UHGV virus genome: UHGV-0170246
DNA from: a virus
Strand: one strand, 5' to 3'
DNA: 45,982 nt
The notes under the pieces are model-generated. The model had not been told where the DNA came from. It saw only the letters and a program-made list of their open reading frames with translations, and ran no database searches. Shown piece after piece: positions 129 to 34,227 of the stretch; the stretch's first letter is position 1; the number at the start of each line of letters is the position of its first letter. The translations under genes were made by a program, and so were the position numbers.

Positions 129-683
129 ATGCAATATGGTTATGCGAGGGTGTCAACTTTTGACCAGAATTTGGAATTACAACTGGAGGCGCTCAGGAGT
201 TCAGGATGTGACCGGATTTTTGAAGATAAAATATCCGGTGCTAAATCAAAACGACCAGGACTTGATAAGCTACTGAAGGTGTTACGACCGGGCGATACGG
301 TTATTGTCTGGAAGCTGGACCGAATGGGGCGTTCTCTGATTCATCTTGTTGATTTACTTAACCATTTTTTATCAAACGACATTGAGTTTATTTCGATTAC
401 GGAAGGGATAAAAATTAGCACTTCAATTGGCCGCTTTGCCTACACGATGCTGAGTGCAGTCGCAGAGATGGAGCGGGAAAATATGATTGAAAGAACGCGT
501 GCAGGATTGGCGGTGGCAAGGGCTAACGGCAGGATAGGAGGACGCCGCTCAAAGCTGGCACCAGAGCAATGGGAACAGATCGGAAGGCTTATTGCGAATG
601 GTGTTTCACGTAAGCGGATAGCGATTATCTTCGATGTTACCTTATCCACGCTTTACCGCAGGTTTCCGGCTGGGAATCATTGA
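129..683 (+). CDS. Serine recombinase, DNA invertase of the Gin/Cin/Pin/Hin family
   Basis: 184 aa; N-terminal YARVST..Q motif with catalytic Ser, GRIGGR and C-terminal HTH; close to phage Mu Gin from recalled sequence. Confidence 0.9.
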   Translation: MQYGYARVSTFDQNLELQLEALRSSGCDRIFEDKISGAKSKRPGLDKLLKVLRPGDTVIVWKLDRMGRSLIHLVDLLNHFLSNDIEFISITEGIKISTSIGRFAYTMLSAVAEMERENMIERTRAGLAVARANGRIGGRRSKLAPEQWEQIGRLIANGVSRKRIAIIFDVTLSTLYRRFPAGNH

Positions 684-3303: not shown

Positions 3304-3657
3304 TTGAGCATGTGGACGGTACTTTTTAGCCAGCGATTTGACGACTGGCTAAATGAGCAAGAAGACGCTCTTCAGGAAAAGGTTTTGGCTGATTTGAAAA
3401 AGCTACAGGTTTACGGACCTGAGTTACCCAGGCCATATGCCGATACCGTAAAAGGTTCTCGGTACAAAAATATGAAAGAGCTTCGCGTTCAGTTTTCTGG
3501 CCGTCCGATAAGAGCCTTTTATGCGTTCGATCCGATTCGCCGGGCCATCGTTCTTTGTGCAGGAGACAAAAGTAACGATAAACGGTTTTATGAAAAACTG
3601 GTGCGTATAGCTGAGGATGAGTTTGCAGCACATCTGAACACACTGGAGAGCAAGTAA
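3304..3657 (+). CDS. RelE/ParE-superfamily toxin, HigB-like (phage Gp49-like)
   Basis: 117 aa; toxin precedes an HTH antitoxin with TAATGA stop/start overlap at 3655-3660; family assignment from recalled pattern. Confidence 0.6.
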   Translation: MSMWTVLFSQRFDDWLNEQEDALQEKVLADLKKLQVYGPELPRPYADTVKGSRYKNMKELRVQFSGRPIRAFYAFDPIRRAIVLCAGDKSNDKRFYEKLVRIAEDEFAAHLNTLESK

Positions 3658-3956
3658 TGAGAACATTAGATGAGGTGATTGCCAGCCGTTCACCTGAAAG
3701 CCAGGCGCGAATTAAAGAAATGGCAGATGAGATGATTCTTGAGGTCGGCTTGCAGATGATGCGTGAAGAACTCCAGTTATCACAAAAACAGGTTGCTGAG
3801 GCGATGGGTATAAGCCAGCCAGCAGTAACAAAGCTGGAGCAGCGCGGAAATGATTTAAAGCTGGCGACATTAAAGCGTTACGTTGAAGCTATGGGAGGCA
3901 AATTAAGCCTGGATGTTGAGCTTCCCACAGGAAAACGAATAGCGTTTAACATCTGA
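3657..3956 (+). CDS. HTH XRE-family antitoxin, HigA-like
   Basis: 99 aa; HTH segment LSQKQVAEAMGISQPAVTKLE; translationally coupled to the upstream toxin. Confidence 0.6.
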   Translation: MRTLDEVIASRSPESQARIKEMADEMILEVGLQMMREELQLSQKQVAEAMGISQPAVTKLEQRGNDLKLATLKRYVEAMGGKLSLDVELPTGKRIAFNI

Positions 3957-5645: not shown

Positions 5646-6791
5646 TTATGGTCTGCTTTTCTGTGCCAGCTTATCAGCACATGTTTTTATCAGATCCTGT
5701 AGTGTCCTGGCTGGCAGGTTTGCATCCAGTACGCTGAGTATGCTGTTGTGTTCTGCTTGGTCGACTACTTTGCCTGTCGGTGGTAGTAGCTTGAGCTGAG
5801 GATTCAGGTTTTCGTCAAAGCTGATAAGTGCTCTGGCGTTTCTGAGCAGATCAAGAAGTAAGGCTGATATCACATTTTCCTGAGTCATTGCTGGCAGACT
5901 TAGCGCCGCTTTGGTTTTCCCTGTTGCCTTGTCAAACTCCTTGATTAGTTCCTTCCTGTAGTTCGGTTCCGTTAATAGCCGATTATGCTCTGTTGCCGCG
6001 CGGATAATCGTTTTTTCCTGGTATAGTCGTTTAGCCAGATCACGCTCGTACTGTGTTTTTAACACGCTGCTGATAGCGTTAAAGGCTTCAATGTAGGCCA
6101 GCTTGATATCTTTCACGCTTGGACCGTCGATGCTCTCCATGAGCAAGGTAAATCCGTCTTTTGTCATGCGATAGATTGTTATTTCGCGGTCGCTTCCTTC
6201 CAGCGGTCGTTGCTCTTTAAAGAAGTGACGCGCCGCAGCTGTGCGAGGAATGCGTAACGCATCGATGGCCATAACGATGGAATTGTTTGTGGTGCTGAAT
6301 GCCTGGGCAACATCGGCTGAGGTTGTGAGTGGCTCGTTGTTGCACACCTTAATGTAATACATTGGTTTAGCGTTGAGCGTATCGACAACCTCACGAGCAT
6401 TGTTTGGTGAGACGGTTACGGTCGCGGCCGTTTGCGCGTTCTGGTTGAAGTAGCAGTCTTCCAGCCGTTCGAATACATCCCACGCCTGATCGGTTTCGAG
6501 CATTTTAGCGTGACGTGCAGCCCCGCGTTCTGTCCAGAGGATGAGGGAGCGGACTTTAGGTGAAACTGGATTTTGAGAGTAGTTTAAAGCTACCCGCAAT
6601 TCTTTAAGGTCATTACCAACAACTTTGAAAAAGTGTTTCCCTTCAACGAAACGTGCTTTGTTCTCATGATGATTCTGGCGAATACGCACCGGCTCAGTGC
6701 CGTAAAGCTGTGCTAGTAACTCGGTAGTAATGACAGGGATTTGGTTATGCAGGATAGGCTGTAGGGTGTTAACGGTCGGAAGCGTTTTCAT
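5646..6791 (-). CDS. Antirepressor-like protein (ORF6N-type N-terminus, Rha-like central region)
   Basis: 381 aa; N-terminal pattern PVITTELLAQLYGTEPVRIRQNHHENKARFVEGKHFFK and internal TTSADVAQAF segment typical of phage Ant/Rha-type regulators (recalled domain patterns). Confidence 0.55.
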   Translation of the reverse strand: MKTLPTVNTLQPILHNQIPVITTELLAQLYGTEPVRIRQNHHENKARFVEGKHFFKVVGNDLKELRVALNYSQNPVSPKVRSLILWTERGAARHAKMLETDQAWDVFERLEDCYFNQNAQTAATVTVSPNNAREVVDTLNAKPMYYIKVCNNEPLTTSADVAQAFSTTNNSIVMAIDALRIPRTAAARHFFKEQRPLEGSDREITIYRMTKDGFTLLMESIDGPSVKDIKLAYIEAFNAISSVLKTQYERDLAKRLYQEKTIIRAATEHNRLLTEPNYRKELIKEFDKATGKTKAALSLPAMTQENVISALLLDLLRNARALISFDENLNPQLKLLPPTGKVVDQAEHNSILSVLDANLPARTLQDLIKTCADKLAQKSRP

Positions 6792-6979
6792 TTTGCACCT
6801 CCCATAACTACTTTGGTTACGAGGGAGATTTTTGCGTCAGAAACAGCGTTATCGTTGCTGGCGATGCGCATAGCTTCGCGCTCGATGATTTCAGCCAGGC
6901 GGAATTTATCGGCGTATGAGGCTTTCTTGAGAAGGATCTTTACGAGGTTGACGTAATAGTCATGGGGTAAGTTTGTCAT
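6788..6979 (-). CDS. Small hypothetical protein, first gene of the antirepressor operon
   Basis: 63-aa ORF; its stop overlaps the antirepressor start (ATGA). Confidence 0.35.
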   Translation of the reverse strand: MTNLPHDYYVNLVKILLKKASYADKFRLAEIIEREAMRIASNDNAVSDAKISLVTKVVMGGAK

Positions 6980-7394
6980 GGTGATAGTTCCCTTAAAGGT
7001 TAAGGATACTCACCACCGTCTGGTTCCAATCATTGGGTGGTGAGACGTACAGGGTTGGAACTACCGGTCACCATGGAATCCGGCGAGTCTTACGACTCCC
7101 CCGCACGCCCCACCATAATTTGGGTGTAGCAGTGCTTTACGCATAAAAAAACCGCTAACGCGGTATGCGCCATGATGATTATCGGGGTTCCAATCCCGAC
7201 CGTAGATTTTGCTACGGCTCGGAAAGTGTCCACCAATGGCGCATTTATGTCAATACAGAGGGATTTTAACAGAGACAACCACATAGCGTGGGTTTATTGG
7301 TAGGCAGAAACAAAAAAACCGCCCTATTGAGGACGGTTCTTTCGTGCTGATCGGATTCGCGGTCCTTTCAGCATAACGTCGTTGTACTAATACA

Positions 7395-7414
7395 ACCACG
7401 CAAGCACAAACAGC
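7395..7414. repeat. Direct repeat copy 1 (ACCACGCAAGCACAAACAGC)
   Basis: 19/20 identical to 7645-7664, about 250 bp downstream, in an ORF-poor region. Confidence 0.6.
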
Positions 7415-7644
7415 AACTACATTCTTACCCAACTGAGGTGAATAGTCCACTATTCATATAAAAAAATTTAGCTCATTAGCTCATGCAAAATGAAGGTTTT
7501 TAACTTATTTACGTGTAATCTCATGTAATAAAAGCGTTTTTTATTCCTTCATTATGAAGGGTATGACGTGTAATATGGCTTGGGGCCTTTCCGCCGATTC
7601 GCACCCGGGCACTGACTTTCAGGAAAGGATTATCCACTTGCCGT

Positions 7645-7664
7645 ACCACGCAGGCACAAACAGC
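7645..7664. repeat. Direct repeat copy 2 (ACCACGCAGGCACAAACAGC)
   Basis: See copy 1. Confidence 0.6.
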
Positions 7665-7728
7665 GTGCTTGCTCTCGCGTCATTTTCGTCGGTGGGGATG
7701 CCGTGAAACGGCCTGTAAGGGCCACACA

Positions 7729-7851
7729 ATGAAAAAATACTACATGTGTATTTTTATCGTTGTTACTGGAGCTTTGTTTACGCCACATGGGGAGGGTTGG
7801 AAGATTACTGATAACGCTCTGAATGTGACGATAAACATTAGCAGCAAGTAG
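7729..7851 (+). CDS. Possible small hydrophobic peptide (40 aa)
   Basis: In-frame ATG of ORF 7669-7851; one predicted transmembrane stretch (YYMCIFIVVTGALF); followed at once by a strong terminator; no recognisable family. Confidence 0.2.
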   Translation: MKKYYMCIFIVVTGALFTPHGEGWKITDNALNVTINISSK

Positions 7852-7856
7852 CGATT

Positions 7857-7880
7857 AGGCCCCTTCGGGGGCCTTTTTTA
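7857..7880 (+). terminator. Rho-independent terminator
   Basis: 7-bp stem AGGCCCC/GGGGCCT with TTCG tetraloop followed by TTTTTT. Confidence 0.75.
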
Positions 7881-8028
7881 CTGCAACCTGCATTTGATAG
7901 CTGTTTACCATTGCAGTAGCTTATATACCGTAAGAGCCACAAGATGTGGTTACGATTTCAATACGGGGTTGATATGAAAAAGCGGTATGACGAATTTGAT
8001 GGTTTCTAAGAGACGTTGACCTCTAATG

Positions 8029-8055
8029 AGGCGGGTTGGTTGCCCGCCTTTTTTA
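8029..8055 (+). terminator. Rho-independent terminator
   Basis: Stem GGCGGG/CCCGCC with a 7-nt loop followed by TTTTTT; second plus-strand terminator ~170 bp after the first. Confidence 0.7.
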
Positions 8056-8064
8056 TGGCTACAT

Positions 8065-8247
8065 TTAAACGCTGGAACGCATTAAACCTTTCAGAACTGC
8101 TTCACGTACCCATTCTGGCCTGGTTGATAGCAAGGCAAATAAACGCCCAGCTTTGAGTCGCTTGAGGTCTATTAGACGAGTTTTTAGTAACCGTGTATAT
8201 TGTTGTTCGGACATAACAAATTCCCCTTGTTGTGTCGCGACGGCCAA
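8065..8247 (-). CDS. Hypothetical small protein, distal gene of the partition operon
   Basis: 60-aa ORF directly downstream of the parG-like gene on the same strand. Confidence 0.3.
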   Translation of the reverse strand: MAVATQQGEFVMSEQQYTRLLKTRLIDLKRLKAGRLFALLSTRPEWVREAVLKGLMRSSV

Positions 8248-8276
8248 CAGTTGGCGCTGGAGGCCGTCACCTTCTC

Positions 8277-8525
8277 TTACTTCTGGTTGTATTGAGCCTT
8301 GAGTAACTCAAAAGATTTTGTCAGCACTTCTTTCAATGACATATCCATTGAACTGGCGAACGTTTTGTACTCGCGTTTAAATTCAGGGTCGACGTTAAAC
8401 GCCATTTGTGCCCCACCTGATTTGGTTCTGGTTGGCGTTTCAGTCGGGTCGAAAACCTGCGGTTGTTCGATCGATGGCGGTACGCCTTTGCTGTTCTTCT
8501 TTGGTGGTTTTGATGGTGCGGCCAT
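8277..8525 (-). CDS. ParG-like ribbon-helix-helix centromere-binding protein
   Basis: 82 aa, immediately downstream of parA; unstructured basic N-terminal tail and C-terminal RHH-like segment (FNVDPEFKREYKTFASSMDMSLKEVL). Confidence 0.6.
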   Translation of the reverse strand: MAAPSKPPKKNSKGVPPSIEQPQVFDPTETPTRTKSGGAQMAFNVDPEFKREYKTFASSMDMSLKEVLTKSFELLKAQYNQK

Positions 8526-8537
8526 GTGTATCCCCTC

Positions 8538-8570
8538 TTATATAAATCTATAAAACTATAATTATATATT
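8538..8570. repeat. AT-rich motif locus (TATAAATCTATAAAACTATAATTATATATT) downstream of parG
   Basis: Member of the dispersed TATAATTATATA(AAT) motif family. Confidence 0.55.
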
Positions 8571-9237
8571 ACGCGGCAGTAGTCAGAGCCTCAAGCTGGT
8601 TGATAATCCCCTGAATAACGTCGTCTGCCTTTTTGCGTGGCGCAACGTATGAGCATTCAATGAGGCTTAAGCCCTTATCCTGAGCTTTGCTCAGAGCTGG
8701 CTTGTGGGGAATGTACTTATCGACAACAAAGTATGGCGTATTAGCCAGGTACTCTTGGGCTTCAATATAGTCAGCTTCATTTTCAGCCGCGCCGGAAAAC
8801 ACCATGCAAATTTTCTTGATTGGCACACCCTTTTTAACGATGCCGTGAGCAGTGTTAACGGTGGTTTCCAGGTCATCGGTAGAGAATCGGGTTGGCAAAA
8901 TAACCATATCCAGAAATTCAGATAGCTTCGGTACTGATTCAGATGCGTAGGCACCGCCATCAACGATAACCAGGTCGTATACTTCTGATTCGATGATTTT
9001 CTGGACTTGTGATGGTGTGCCGCACGGCTGCGCCGCGATTGCTGGTTCGATATTGTTGGCCATTCTGCGTTGTACCCAACGCGTTACCGTTCCGTTAAGC
9101 ACATCCATATCGATCAGGCATACATTCCAGCCAGCCTTTGCATAAGCAACTGCTAAAGCACGGGCAATTGTTGATTTGGTTACGCCGCCTTTTCCGTTGA
9201 AAATACCTACAGAGATAGTCATTTGTCGAGACTCCAT
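8569..9237 (-). CDS. parA: ParA-family partition ATPase (small type Ib ParA/ParF-like)
   Basis: 222 aa; deviant Walker A GKGGVTKST near the N-terminus; followed by a small RHH protein gene. Confidence 0.8.
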   Translation of the reverse strand: MESRQMTISVGIFNGKGGVTKSTIARALAVAYAKAGWNVCLIDMDVLNGTVTRWVQRRMANNIEPAIAAQPCGTPSQVQKIIESEVYDLVIVDGGAYASESVPKLSEFLDMVILPTRFSTDDLETTVNTAHGIVKKGVPIKKICMVFSGAAENEADYIEAQEYLANTPYFVVDKYIPHKPALSKAQDKGLSLIECSYVAPRKKADDVIQGIINQLEALTTAA

Positions 9238-9246
9238 GTGTTTGGT

Positions 9247-9350
9247 TATATAATTCTATAAATCTATATTTATAGAACGAGGTAAGCATAACCAACTTTT
9301 TGGCGGATGGAAAGTGTTTTATATAATTATATAAATCTATAATCATATAA
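9247..9350. repeat. Two AT-rich motif blocks upstream of parA (candidate par promoter/centromere)
   Basis: TATATAATTCTATAAATCTATATTTATAGA and TTATATAATTATATAAATCTATAATCATATAA read directly. Confidence 0.55.
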
Positions 9351-9372
9351 GCGGGCGTTAGCCCGCTTGCAG

Positions 9373-9747
9373 TCAGAGGTCAGCTATCGTTGATATCAGT
9401 TGATTTGCTAGCTGTCGCTGTTTACGTGAGAGGGTTAGAGCAGCTTCTGAGCGGTCGCTAAGAGGGGTGTTTTCATCAAGAATCATGAGGCATACAGAAA
9501 TAATAGCCCTGTTATATGCCATCAATGGCTGGCACAGCTTCGATACCGCTGGCACATCGTATTGCAAGGCCGTTTTGAGGCAGACTTTTTGTTCTGATGC
9601 CAGATGAAGGATAGATTCTATCCAGTCGATATCTTTCTCATTATCAATGATTTGGCATAACATACACTCAATCGCTATGTTCAACGCTTGGATTTCGATT
9701 CCAGCAGTGATCAGAGTTTCATTTTTATTGGCTGTATGTAATTCCAT
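9373..9747 (-). CDS. Hypothetical protein downstream of the repressor gene
   Basis: 124-aa ORF, same strand as the repressor; an operator-type palindrome lies between the two genes. Confidence 0.45.
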   Translation of the reverse strand: MELHTANKNETLITAGIEIQALNIAIECMLCQIIDNEKDIDWIESILHLASEQKVCLKTALQYDVPAVSKLCQPLMAYNRAIISVCLMILDENTPLSDRSEAALTLSRKQRQLANQLISTIADL

Positions 9748-9780
9748 GCGTAGCCTCTTTTATACTTTTACATGTTGTCA

Positions 9781-9797
9781 AAACCACATAATGTGGT
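9781..9797. promoter_or_regulatory. Operator-like palindrome AACCACATAATGTGGTT
   Basis: Perfect 6-5-6 inverted repeat, same half-sites as 813-829. Confidence 0.55.
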
Positions 9798-9839
9798 TTT
9801 TTTGAGCGTAGAAATGCACGGCTTTCGCCGTGCTGTGTA

Positions 9840-10496
9840 TCATAACCAGTTGACAACACTAACTACGCGGCCAAGAACTTTATAACGCTTAAATTCCTCG
9901 TTATTCAGATGCTTAGTGTTCATTTCAGCATCCCTTTCGGTTGACAGCATAACAGCATTGTCACCCGGTATGACTCTACAGTGCCTCAAAACAACCAGGC
10001 CATTTCTGTCTTCAAGGGCATAGATCCCCTCATGAATCTCTGTATCGTCTGTATTAATCAGGACTTGGGAGCCAGGGGATATTGTTGGTGACATTAACTC
10101 ATCGTTGCTCTGGAGAACTGACAGAGACGATGGGTTGATGTTCTTGCTTCGTAGAATCTCCTGTTCTATCGCCAGCACTGGCTTTTCTCCGGCGTGCGAT
10201 GCTATGTCATTTTTTATAGCTACAAGCCCAGGAATAACAGGAGCGTTAGTATTCTGGGGTGGGAACGGGTTATCTGTTAAGCACGCGATATAAGGCGCTG
10301 ATGCTTTCAGGGCGTGCGCGATTTTCTTGATGGCAGGTATCGATGGTTGTCTTAATCCGGCCTCATAGTTCTGCAAGGTGCTTAAGCCTATTCCAGTGAC
10401 TTGCTGGAGATCTCCGGCAGTCATGCCGGATTGTTTCCGTAGAGTCTGAATGCGCAGACCTATTTCTTTCTTGATGTTCTCGTCGTTGCTTTTCAT
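9840..10496 (-). CDS. CI-like phage repressor (N-terminal HTH, C-terminal LexA/S24-like domain)
   Basis: 218 aa; HTH TAGDLQQVTGIGLSTLQNYEAG; C-terminal region has the overall S24 pattern but the GxSM catalytic motif is not obvious on hand alignment. Confidence 0.75.
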   Translation of the reverse strand: MKSNDENIKKEIGLRIQTLRKQSGMTAGDLQQVTGIGLSTLQNYEAGLRQPSIPAIKKIAHALKASAPYIACLTDNPFPPQNTNAPVIPGLVAIKNDIASHAGEKPVLAIEQEILRSKNINPSSLSVLQSNDELMSPTISPGSQVLINTDDTEIHEGIYALEDRNGLVVLRHCRVIPGDNAVMLSTERDAEMNTKHLNNEEFKRYKVLGRVVSVVNWL

Positions 10497-10532
10497 GTCT
10501 CATCAATCGTGAATGGTGGGTTATTTATACAT

Positions 10533-10652
10533 TACCACATTTAGTGGTTTTCACATGGTAAGACGAGAGGTGGACCACAAATAGAAGGTTATTTTTTGTT
10601 TCGCCCATTGAAAAACTCACGATATGTGGTTTTAATACCACATATCGTGGTT
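10533..10652. promoter_or_regulatory. Immunity-region operator cluster: three palindromes of the ACCAC-N5-GTGGT type
   Basis: TACCACATTTAGTGGTT (10533-10549), ACTCACGATATGTGGTT (10615-10631), TACCACATATCGTGGTT (10636-10652) between the divergent repressor and rightward early genes. Confidence 0.65.
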
Positions 10653-10670
10653 TTAACTGGAGTTCGTTAA

Positions 10671-11165
10671 ATGACCTTTCAGGAGTGGGTTGACGAAAAT
10701 GGAGGCCAAATTGGTGTTGCCAGAAAGTTTGGCTTTACGTCATCACTGATTGGTGCCTGGTATCGCTTCGAGAGATTCCCTCGTGCGGATAACCTGACGC
10801 TGCTGGTGGCGTATTCGGAAGGCCGGATTAACGTCCAGCAATGGGCGGCAGATTTTGCCGAACGTCAGCGCCAGCGTAGCGATGGCACATCGGTTCGGCA
10901 GAACAAGATCAAAGGGAATCTCCCTGTTAACTGCTTATCAAGGCTGAAAGCGGTTTTCTCTGAGCTGGGGATGCCTGCGGAGCGTTGCAATCTACGCGGT
11001 CCGCGATTCATTGCTCGCTGGAAACACTCACACGTAACCGTTTCAGAGGTTCGTGATGCGATTACCGTGCTGGAGCTTAAGAATAAAGATTCCAGCGATA
11101 TCGAGCTGATTCATAAGGAGATTAGCAACGCCCGGCGTTCAGCACTTGGGAGGCTTGAGGAATGA
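10671..11165 (+). CDS. Putative HTH regulator, first gene of the rightward early operon (Cro/CII position)
   Basis: 164 aa; divergent from the repressor across the operator cluster; function is by position only. Confidence 0.35.
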   Translation: MTFQEWVDENGGQIGVARKFGFTSSLIGAWYRFERFPRADNLTLLVAYSEGRINVQQWAADFAERQRQRSDGTSVRQNKIKGNLPVNCLSRLKAVFSELGMPAERCNLRGPRFIARWKHSHVTVSEVRDAITVLELKNKDSSDIELIHKEISNARRSALGRLEE

Positions 11166-11677: not shown

Positions 11678-11907
11678 GTAGTTATGTTCGCGGTGCTGCG
11701 ATGCATTGCCAGAATCCCCAATTCTGGCGCTTTCTGACCAGTAAAACAGGGAAGAACGTTTCAAACAGTTCTGAGGCCTCTGTGATTCTGCGTGAGTTTT
11801 GCGGGATCTCATCCCGTAAAGAGCTGGCAAAGAACTACGCGGCCAGAAGCATGTATGTCCAGTTAATCAACGAGTTCAACCTCTTTATCAATGGTAAGGG
11901 GCGCTGA
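11674..11907 (+). CDS. Hypothetical protein
   Basis: 77-aa ORF in an operon of overlapping reading frames. Confidence 0.35.
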   Translation: MSSYVRGAAMHCQNPQFWRFLTSKTGKNVSNSSEASVILREFCGISSRKELAKNYAARSMYVQLINEFNLFINGKGR

Positions 11908-12311
11908 TGAACGGACGTACACCAACGAAGAAAGAGAAACTTTATATACAAGCGGTGCTCACTCACGTGGGTTGCATAGCTTGCATTATTGATGGCCGTG
12001 AAATTGAGAATCCAGAGCTGTGGACGGAGCTACATCACGATCCTGATTACGGCAGCGTTGATGAGAATTGCCACTTTCATAGCTTTGGATTGTGCGCACC
12101 ACATCATCGCGGTGTTGTGCCTGGTGGTGGGCGCGTGCCTCCGCATATCGCCGTTCGTCACCCTCCCCTGAGTAATTGTGCTCGCTTTGTTGAGCGTTAT
12201 GGCACCGATGAATTTTTGTGTGCGCAGACGTGGGAGCTGTTGCCGCAGTCAGTTAAAGACGAAATTGGGTTTGATCTTAGTCTTGGTGAAGTACCAGGGG
12301 ATACCAAATGA
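11907..12311 (+). CDS. Putative HNH-type nuclease, Ref-like
   Basis: 134 aa; Cys/His-rich with paired HH motifs (ELHHDPDYG, CAPHHRG) and GCIACI; resemblance to the P1 Ref/DUF968 family is a recalled pattern. Confidence 0.35.
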   Translation: MNGRTPTKKEKLYIQAVLTHVGCIACIIDGREIENPELWTELHHDPDYGSVDENCHFHSFGLCAPHHRGVVPGGGRVPPHIAVRHPPLSNCARFVERYGTDEFLCAQTWELLPQSVKDEIGFDLSLGEVPGDTK

Positions 12312-14617: not shown

Positions 14618-14979
14618 GCATCAAAACCCATACCGGAATAATCATTACCAATGATGGTGAGAAAAGAGTGAAGTTGCGCGAAACGCCGACAACCTGGTGT
14701 GTTGGTCCGAAAGAAACATATCGCAAGGAAGATGGCCGTCGTTGTGGGGCACCACTTTCCCGCCGTCGCCTCCTTTTGAGCACGATAAAACCTATCGGGC
14801 AGGTTGAGCAACCAACGACTCCGGTAACGAAGATTTCAGACAAGAGTCTGGCAAACCTGATCGCCGATGCGGACAAGGTGCTGGAGCGGAACACCCCCGT
14901 TGCAGATGAGGAATGGTGGCAGGATTTCCGAGCCGCAATGCTAGAGCTTCAGGAACGTCGTCGGGAGGAGTTGAAGTGA
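14614..14979 (+). CDS. Hypothetical protein
   Basis: 121-aa ORF; ATGA overlap with the upstream gene. Confidence 0.4.
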   Translation: MSIKTHTGIIITNDGEKRVKLRETPTTWCVGPKETYRKEDGRRCGAPLSRRRLLLSTIKPIGQVEQPTTPVTKISDKSLANLIADADKVLERNTPVADEEWWQDFRAAMLELQERRREELK

Positions 14980-19728: not shown

Positions 19729-19804
19729 GGCCCCTTAGCTCAGTGGTTAGAGCAGGCGACTCATAATCGCACGGTCATCGGTTCAAATCCGGTAGGGGCC
19801 ACCA
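19729..19804 (+). tRNA. tRNA with anticodon CAU (Met, or Ile2 if lysidine-modified)
   Basis: Hand-folded cloverleaf: 7-bp acceptor stem GGCCCCT/AGGGGCC, D arm, anticodon loop CTCATAA, T arm GGTTCAAATCC, encoded CCA; strongly resembles E. coli ileX as I recall it. Confidence 0.85.
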
Positions 19805-33883: not shown

Positions 33884-34227
33884 TGAACTCCTTCAAAGAG
33901 GTTATAGCGCAAGATATTTCTGCAATATTCCTCAATGAAAAAGAGTTTGCCGATACATATAACATAGACGGCAAGGATATCCTTGCCGTTATTGATACAG
34001 ACCTTATTCATGAGCGTAATAAACGCTCATATGCTGAGTTTGCAGAGGGAATAAATCAGGGACAAATAATATTATTTGTTTCAAGAAAAGATTTTCCTGT
34101 TATCCCTGTCAAAGACCAGTCAATGAAAATCAACGGTAAAAATTATATTGTTGATGAAGTATCAGATAATGTTGGTGTATTGGAAATAACTCTCACTGTT
34201 AATACTAACAGAGGAATGCCGATTTGA
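33883..34227 (+). CDS. Putative head-tail connector (lambda FII-like)
   Basis: 114 aa; by size and position, weak pattern similarity. Confidence 0.35.
   Translation: MNSFKEVIAQDISAIFLNEKEFADTYNIDGKDILAVIDTDLIHERNKRSYAEFAEGINQGQIILFVSRKDFPVIPVKDQSMKINGKNYIVDEVSDNVGVLEITLTVNTNRGMPI

Follow-up and report, generated by a model that had tools for sequence, protein, structure and literature searches.

A predicted non-cleavable immunity repressor with a degenerate S24 domain, and its probable RNA-gated antirepressor, in a phage-plasmid

How is a prophage repressor lifted from its operators if it can no longer cleave itself? The question is raised by a gene on the minus strand of UHGV virus genome UHGV-0170246, a stretch of 45,982 nt that is referred to here as the window. 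The gene encodes a repressor of 218 amino acids (Table 1). On the basis of a hand alignment to lambda CI, the first-pass annotation had proposed that the S24 catalytic motif of this repressor is degenerate, that the protein would not cleave itself after RecA activation, and that induction would depend on an antirepressor, Ant, encoded elsewhere in the window. The open reading frame (ORF) of the repressor is real: it is intact, and it is annotated alike in 58 plasmids. Our reading, which we consider likely, is that the gene encodes the non-cleavable immunity repressor of a phage-plasmid, and that this repressor is most likely inactivated by an Ant protein whose synthesis is gated by RNA.

Homology of the C-terminal domain (C-domain) to S24 peptidases and its LexA-type fold are established by profile alignment, which needed an intermediate, and by structural modeling. 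The direct match to Peptidase_S24 (PF00717) in Pfam was sub-threshold (18.4 bits against a cut-off of 23.3, E 0.0018), and direct phmmer and family-profile searches of PDB sequences returned helix-turn-helix (HTH) proteins only, with no S24 chain among them. Exhaustive searching with a C-domain profile collected 636 relatives at E <= 1e-3, and a profile of canonical relatives served to link the C-domain to the S24 chains of the PDB. The profile of the repressor's own family aligned with that of 30 canonical relatives at an hhalign probability of 99.75% (E 2.7e-27), and the canonical-relative profile in turn matched UmuD (E 3.4e-11) and LexA (E 8.8e-8) among PDB sequences. The family meant here is narrow, comprising 13 clusters at 90% identity in a word-indexed homologue search; its alignment holds 12 representatives, which share 60-67% identity with the window protein.

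Structural modeling agreed with the profile comparisons. With the 12-sequence family alignment, AlphaFold2 (AF2) gave the C-domain a predicted local distance difference test score (pLDDT) of 31-58 per 10-residue block; an alignment of 120 sequences was used instead and produced a model with a mean pLDDT of 92. The best matches of this model in a Foldseek search of the PDB were a lambda-186 hybrid repressor (7jvt, E 3.4e-8) and the CI repressor of coliphage 186 (2fjr, E 7.9e-7). Foldseek also aligned it with the C-domain of Mycobacterium tuberculosis LexA (6a2s, TM score 0.73, root-mean-square deviation 2.3 A), with UmuD (8gmt, TM score 0.80) and with the C-domain of lambda CI (1f39, TM score 0.67).

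Both strings singled out in the first-pass annotation, NDELMSP and VLRHCR, are present in the protein, and profile alignment bears out the suspicion that they are remnants of a catalytic motif, with Leu134 standing for the nucleophilic Ser and Arg171 (or Leu170) for the general-base Lys. The catalytic residues are Ser60 and Lys97 in UmuD and Ser119 and Lys156 in LexA, and the corresponding motifs, GDSM/VKKL and GMSM/VKRL, fix the catalytic columns of the canonical-profile alignment. There, hhalign paired the canonical G-D-S-M-x-P-T-I with D-E-L-M-S-P-T-I, which puts Leu134 in the Ser column, and the canonical V-K-R with L-R-H, which puts Arg171 in the Lys column. Consistent with this pairing, a MAFFT alignment of the 120 sequences had Ser in the Leu134 column in 83 of 108 relatives and Lys in the Arg171 column in 77 of 108. 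An alignment made with hmmsearch, with the family profile as its anchor, recovered the same Ser column (120/149); in it the Lys fell partly in the Leu170 column and partly in the Arg171 column (60 'KR' vs about 40 '[VI]K'). This ambiguity of one residue in the Lys register counts against an exact assignment of the position, and the lengths of the hairpin do not settle it, as the active homologues LexA, UmuD and lambda CI themselves differ by one residue. We favor Arg171 as the residue in the Lys column, Leu170 being less likely; no family member has a Lys at either position.

A third loss, which goes beyond the first-pass annotation, affects the cleavage site itself. Canonical relatives carry the sequence [AS]-A-G-x-G after the first strand and ahead of the LAF helix, and at this point the repressor family has an 11-column gap, a deletion of the Ala-Gly cleavage-site segment. 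The three losses go together. Ser and Lys were both present in 72 of the 108 relatives in the MAFFT alignment and both absent from 20, and an [AC]-G-x-G motif occurred in 54 of the 72 relatives bearing the dyad, in none of the 20 without it, and in none of the 12 family members. The closest matches outside the family are often degenerate too (11 of the first 20), the profile slightly favoring such sequences. Within the family, D132, L134, M135 and P137 are invariant among the 12 representatives, and the motifs DELM[AS]PTI and [LI]RHCR are invariant or nearly so. Because the losses co-occur and are invariant in the family, they point to an old, selected non-catalytic state and not to recent, pseudogene-like decay. 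Of five testable features of an S24 peptidase, the protein has the fold and lacks the other four (the Ser, the Lys, the scissile bond and a Pfam score above the cut-off); we therefore file it as a non-peptidase S24 homologue and not as an autopeptidase. With the Ser, the Lys and the Ala-Gly segment lost, RecA-stimulated self-cleavage is not expected, and a non-cleavable repressor is well supported by the alignments and the model.

Cleavage might conceivably proceed through non-canonical residues, with Ser136, Thr138 or Cys173 as the nucleophile and Arg171 or His172 as the base. Such a scheme could draw on the family-wide invariance of R171, H172, C173 and R174, and on the presence in the window protein of both Ser136 and an Ala102-Gly103 pair. 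However, Ser136 is replaced by Ala in 10 of 12 family members, and the Ala102-Gly103 pair is unconserved (SG, -G, GS, -D) and lies outside the deleted cleavage-site segment. Thr138 belongs to a structural PTI motif that is common to active S24 proteins, and His172 and Cys173 are not kept in the wider degenerate clade, which reads RW[IGA]R, RFVR or RRVR. In addition, adjacent residues of one beta-strand, here residues 168-176 of the model, face opposite sides. We regard cleavage by this route as hardly credible.

In 12 of 12 family representatives, the sequence of the strand in which the catalytic Lys formerly lay is RHCR (R171-H172-C173-R174, positions 9975-9986). A distant degenerate relative, P0018, also has FRHCR, and other degenerate relatives have R-[WFR]-x-R. 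The invariant RHCR could be a partner-binding surface.

The remainder of the protein and the DNA around its gene identify the system in which this C-domain operates. The N-terminal domain is a Cro/C1-type helix-turn-helix by its match to HTH_3 (PF01381; 43 bits against a cut-off of 23, E 4.5e-11), and residues 12-49 are nearly invariant within the narrow family. In PHROGs, nearly the whole protein (residues 4-217) fell into the large CI-type repressor family phrog_4 (E 9.6e-27), and the C-domain into phrog_6201, 'CI-like repressor' (E 2.9e-9). The palindrome ACCAC-N5-GTGGT occurs in four exact copies in the window, where 0.07 would be expected. Two of these, along with one copy with two mismatches, lie within 10534-10651, in the 174-bp divergent region between the repressor gene and a rightward early operon. 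Diverged relatives of the element (L003-L007) come from Citrobacter, Klebsiella and Salmonella, and in four or five of them the operator layout is kept with other central bases, the positions being conserved despite the differing spacers. Operators O1 and O2 overlap a predicted rightward promoter that was read by eye; a sigma-70 consensus scan of 6900-10800 found sites no more frequent than in shuffles. Operators at the divergent promoter, taken with the PHROG matches, amount to ordinary CI-type switch anatomy. From these sequence features we infer that the gene encodes the immunity repressor, and we predict that its product binds the operators. The palindrome just downstream of the gene may double as a terminator hairpin.

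Among the products of the early operon are a Ref nuclease and DUF1064 and DUF3560 proteins. The Ref-family RecA-dependent nuclease (11907-12311, plus strand) is so named in homologous plasmids and matches Pfam RecA_dep_nuc in relatives. As this nuclease is RecA-dependent, the element would interact with RecA, though not via its repressor.

Outside the immunity region, an exact palindrome, ACCACGTAAAGTGGT, at 814-828 directly adjoins a perfect TATAAT that lies a short way upstream of the IncFII-type repA. A diverged Salmonella plasmid, pAR-0407-1 (L007), has a matching exact palindrome with another spacer at 14712-14726, about 180 bp upstream of its repA. Through the 814-828 site, control by the prophage repressor may extend to plasmid replication. 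The repressor gene heads a leftward string of genes, all on the minus strand, that continues with an unknown protein of 124 amino acids (9373-9747), ParA (8569-9237) and two further unknown proteins of 82 (8277-8525) and about 60 amino acids (8065-8247).

These neighbors allow the protein to be read as mainly a plasmid-maintenance regulator of repA and the parA operon, and not as a phage immunity repressor. The repA-proximal palindromes in the window and in L007, and the place of the gene at the head of a parA-containing operon, would suit that role, which is compatible with one in immunity. The three operators between the gene and the divergent early phage operon nevertheless form a classic immunity-region layout, and the top family matches are phage repressors; a protein devoted mainly to plasmid maintenance is very unlikely. 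A broader possibility is that the pseudo-protease repressor is a master regulator joining lysogeny to plasmid maintenance: it would act at the immunity operators and at the conserved repA-promoter site, its gene heads the parA operon, and it would be released by an SOS-independent Ant, gated by isrK as activator and C4 as repressor, that recognizes the fast-evolving, degenerate S24 domain, including the invariant RHCR strand. We offer this as speculation and think it improbable as a whole; if true, the decision between prophage and plasmid would be read out through a former active-site domain.

Returning to the non-cleavable immunity repressor, the loss of self-cleavage means that de-repression must be non-proteolytic or must act in trans. 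No trans-acting protease of the ImmA/IrrE type was present among the 25 of 38 Pfam families listed for the 56 window ORFs. We propose that the N-terminal XRE HTH would bind ACCAC-N5-GTGGT operators in the divergent promoter region, shutting off the rightward early operon and probably autoregulating the repressor's own leftward operon. The C-domain, apparently derived from an S24 autopeptidase with its fold kept, would be left with a role in oligomerization or partner binding only, and is presumably a pseudo-protease that serves oligomerization. Judged by sequence and fold, activated RecA would elicit no self-cleavage. De-repression would most likely come about by stoichiometric inactivation of the repressor by Ant, and the isrK and C4 RNAs would gate the translation of Ant through the overlapping orf63 on the pattern of P1 immI and Gifsy-1, as homology and conserved synteny suggest. 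By analogy with these systems, Ant-dependent induction is plausible.

The gene that the first-pass annotation had named as the antirepressor does encode a bona fide Ant homologue. It matched the Pfam domains ORF6N (E 3e-20) and Phage_pRha (E 1.8e-12), and PHROG anti-repressor families at E 1.8e-64 to 1.4e-23. Rfam added to this locus the isrK and C4 RNAs, which lie directly upstream of orf63 and ant on the same strand. Rfam also placed C4 in L003, L004 and L005, and isrK in L003 and L005. Both orf63 and a Rha-type ant are carried by L003 and L005; L004 has the Rha-type gene only, and L007 has an orf63-ant pair by annotation. Between relatives, identity was 90-97% for orf63 and 79-84% for the HTH domain, and the fast-evolving parts were the Ant core (46-52%) and the repressor C-domain (52-69%), in a comparison that covers four taxa only. 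Their parallel fast divergence fits an Ant/C-domain specificity pair.

Table 1. Features of the repressor, operator and antirepressor regions, with window coordinates.
Feature	Coordinates	Strand	Basis or remarks
Gene of the 218-aa repressor: N-terminal XRE/HTH_3 domain, linker, and C-domain of S24 fold lacking the catalytic residues	9840..10496	-	ORF, Pfam, PHROG, AF2
HTH DNA-binding domain, about residues 11-70	10287..10466	-	Pfam HTH_3 residues 16-69; pLDDT 96-98
S24/LexA-fold C-terminal domain, about residues 108-218	9843..10175	-	hhalign, Foldseek
NDELMSP, residues 131-137; Leu134 (nt 10095-10097) at the nucleophile Ser position of GDSMxP	10086..10106	-	
VLRHCR, residues 169-174; Arg171 (nt 9984-9986) at the general-base Lys position, alternative Leu170	9975..9992	-	
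Predicted operator O1, ACCACATATCGTGGT	10637..10651	.	Over -10/start region of rightward early promoter; equivalents in L003-L007
Predicted operator O2, CTCACGATATGTGGT, 2 mismatches	10616..10630	.	In spacer of putative rightward promoter TTGAAA-N17-TTTAAT
Predicted operator O3, ACCACATTTAGTGGT	10534..10548	.	Adjoins the repressor gene's own promoter region; kept in L003-L007
Fourth operator-type palindrome, A/T runs on flanks	9783..9797	.	Just downstream of repressor gene; position kept in L003-L007
First gene of divergent early (lytic) operon	10671..11165	+	Syntenic in all relatives; phrog_7452, unknown function
isrK-type Hfq-binding RNA, first element of ant operon	7145..7218	-	Rfam RF01394, 70.2 bits against gathering score 50
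C4 antisense RNA, P1/P7 immI type	7033..7120	-	Rfam RF01695, 84.3 bits against gathering score 45
63-codon ORF (orf63), in the position of P1 icd / Gifsy-1 orf45	6788..6979	-	Stop overlaps ant start, ATGA 6788-6791
Antirepressor Ant, 381 aa, ORF6N and Rha domains	5646..6791	-	Pfam, PHROG

An alternative accepts the non-cleavable repressor and denies that Ant is its physiological inducer. Repression would then be relieved by a small-protein antirepressor encoded elsewhere, by turnover through a host protease, or by Cro-type competition after dilution of the repressor, and the isrK/C4-ant module would serve superinfection or cross-talk between prophages, as Ant largely does in P22 and P1. Three things speak against this: the recurrence of the module among the five relatives compared (orf63-ant in L003, L005 and L007; C4 in L003-L005; isrK in L003 and L005), the parallel divergence of the Ant core and the repressor C-domain, and the lack of any other antirepressor candidate in the window among the matches listed.

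Several observations do weigh against Ant as the inducer. The Ant proteins of P1 and P22 act mainly on superinfection and are not routine inducers. The ant gene is variable or unrecognizable in relatives with the same or a similar repressor: repressor type P0004 occurs with differing ant genes (a 382-amino-acid ORF6N-Rha, a 234-amino-acid Rha-only and a 165-amino-acid Rha form), and L006 has no recognizable ant or C4 in the ~4.3 kb between its repressor gene and the contig end. These cases imply that Ant may not be obligatory. A box search of the window and its relatives found no conserved LexA box in the immunity or ant regions. The only exact CTGT-N8-ACAG in the window is at 34196, within the virion-gene region, and a LexA-like site near the ant module (7901-7916) sits in a cassette that is missing from L003 and L007. 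With no conserved LexA box, a link from the Ant module to DNA damage is missing. Plasmid-like phages with small-protein induction modules are also known (PMC10432266). Weighing these points against the recurrence of the module, we judge an inducer other than Ant rather unlikely; inactivation of the non-cleavable repressor by Ant is the reading we retain.

A repressor-type palindrome with one mismatch lies at 7278-7292, about 24 bp upstream of the perfect TTGACA -35 of the isrK promoter. It recurs in L005 (9240-9254) and not in L003 or L007. We do not claim it as a P1 Op51-like control of ant, given the mismatch, the poor placement, which is not a classical position for repression, and its sharing with L005 only; in these respects it, too, is in keeping with an inducer other than Ant.

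The cassette absent from L003 and L007 spans 7255-8064 (about 810 bp). It holds a ryfA RNA (7581-7879, 134.6 bits) and, with it, a short hydrophobic ORF (MKKYYMCIFIVVTGALF..., within ORF 7669-7851) that looks like a type I toxin. The same cassette has a half-matching palindrome of the repressor type (7936-7950), a terminator (8028-8050) and an ORF of 11 codons. Where relatives lack the ryfA cassette, the leftward string runs directly into isrK-C4-orf63-ant, making read-through from the lysogenic operon into the ant module conceivable.

This design is already known from 186, N15, Gifsy and P1, by analogy with which we interpret it. The closest characterized analogue of the repressor is coliphage 186 CI (2fjr/2fkd), which likewise joins an HTH N-domain to a LexA/S24-like C-domain without a catalytic dyad. 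Aligned to the catalytic columns, 186 CI has Gly in place of Ser and Arg in place of Lys; sequence similarity between it and the window repressor is marginal (hhalign E 0.05). Coliphage 186 is induced by the antirepressor Tum and not by cleavage (PMC3121763). Tum, however, is a small LexA-controlled relative of DinI, whereas the element described here has an ORF6N-Rha Ant behind isrK and C4, with no LexA box found. Lambda CI, P22 C2, LexA and UmuD share the fold of the C-domain and have detectable homology to it, and lambda CI and P22 C2 resemble the repressor further in their HTH and C-domain architecture and in an operator-based divergent switch. Active S24 autopeptidases differ in having a Ser nucleophile, a Lys base and an Ala-Gly site of their own, all absent here.

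For the antirepressor module, the nearest likenesses lie elsewhere. The immI region of P1 and P7 (c4-icd-ant) has a C4 RNA, a short ORF overlapping the start of ant, and an Ant homologue, and its host element is also a plasmid prophage; it differs in that isrK precedes C4 in the window. The primary repressor of P1, C1, is not known to be an HTH_3/S24-fold protein. The Gifsy-1 isrK-orf45-anrP region of Salmonella likewise begins with an isrK RNA, behind which come a small ORF and an antirepressor-like gene (layout as in PMC4825925). Experiments on Gifsy-1 showed that the short IsrK acts in trans to open a read-through mRNA, from which the small ORF and the antirepressor are then translated (PMC4825925). 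Gifsy repressors are small (136 amino acids) and lack an S24-like domain (PMC3121763). The Gifsy-1 system differs from ours in that AntQ antitermination is the output described for it, and LexA controls the inducing antirepressors of Gifsy. N15, with its CB repressor, is a plasmid prophage induced via the antirepressor AntC and not by cleavage (as cited in PMC3121763); AntC is in the SOS regulon, whereas no LexA box was found here, and we liken the two by description. N15 and Gifsy follow the same logic as 186, with LexA-controlled antirepressors (PMC3121763). What sets the present element apart from 186, N15 and Gifsy is the combination of a 186-like pseudo-protease repressor with an isrK/C4-gated Ant of the P1/Gifsy type and no visible SOS input.

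The element that carries these genes is a circular phage-plasmid of roughly 46-49 kb. By Pfam, other ORFs of the window encode IncFII RepA, ParA, a lambda-type terminase, portal and capsid, and a P2-type contractile tail. A 1.9-kb region around the repressor gene is shared, at no less than 95% identity, by 58 complete, non-mobilizable plasmids of 46-50 kb in PLSDB (at least 99% in 41 of the 58), of which 57 come from Escherichia and one from Klebsiella aerogenes. The same region is present in three phages isolated on Yersinia pestis, vB_YpM_39, vB_YpM_41 and vB_YpM_44, at a DNA identity of at least 98.8%; a literature search on vB_YpM_41 found no paper. RefSeq names the repressor only as a 'helix-turn-helix domain-containing protein', with the identical annotation WP_021543140.1 in 58 E. 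coli-group plasmids. The window also encodes a Cin/Gin-type serine DNA invertase (Resolvase and HTH_7; 129-683, plus strand) and a Gp49/RelE-like toxin paired with an HTH antitoxin (3304-3956, plus strand), which are plasmid-type accessory modules. A tRNA-Met gene (anticodon CAT) stands among the phage genes at 19729-19804 on the plus strand.

This family of phage-plasmids is common, as the PLSDB plasmids, the relatives from Salmonella, Citrobacter and Klebsiella, and the free phages of Yersinia pestis attest, and the present analysis corrects the annotation of its widespread repressor. The repressor domain offers a clean natural case of an S24 domain whose nucleophile, base and cleavage site show correlated loss, and it should help to annotate the many phage repressors that are S24 homologues without being peptidases. 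Because the repressor would be unable to cleave itself, SOS-inducing antibiotics are predicted not to induce these elements via the lambda route, and attention is directed instead to the isrK/C4-Ant module for their induction.

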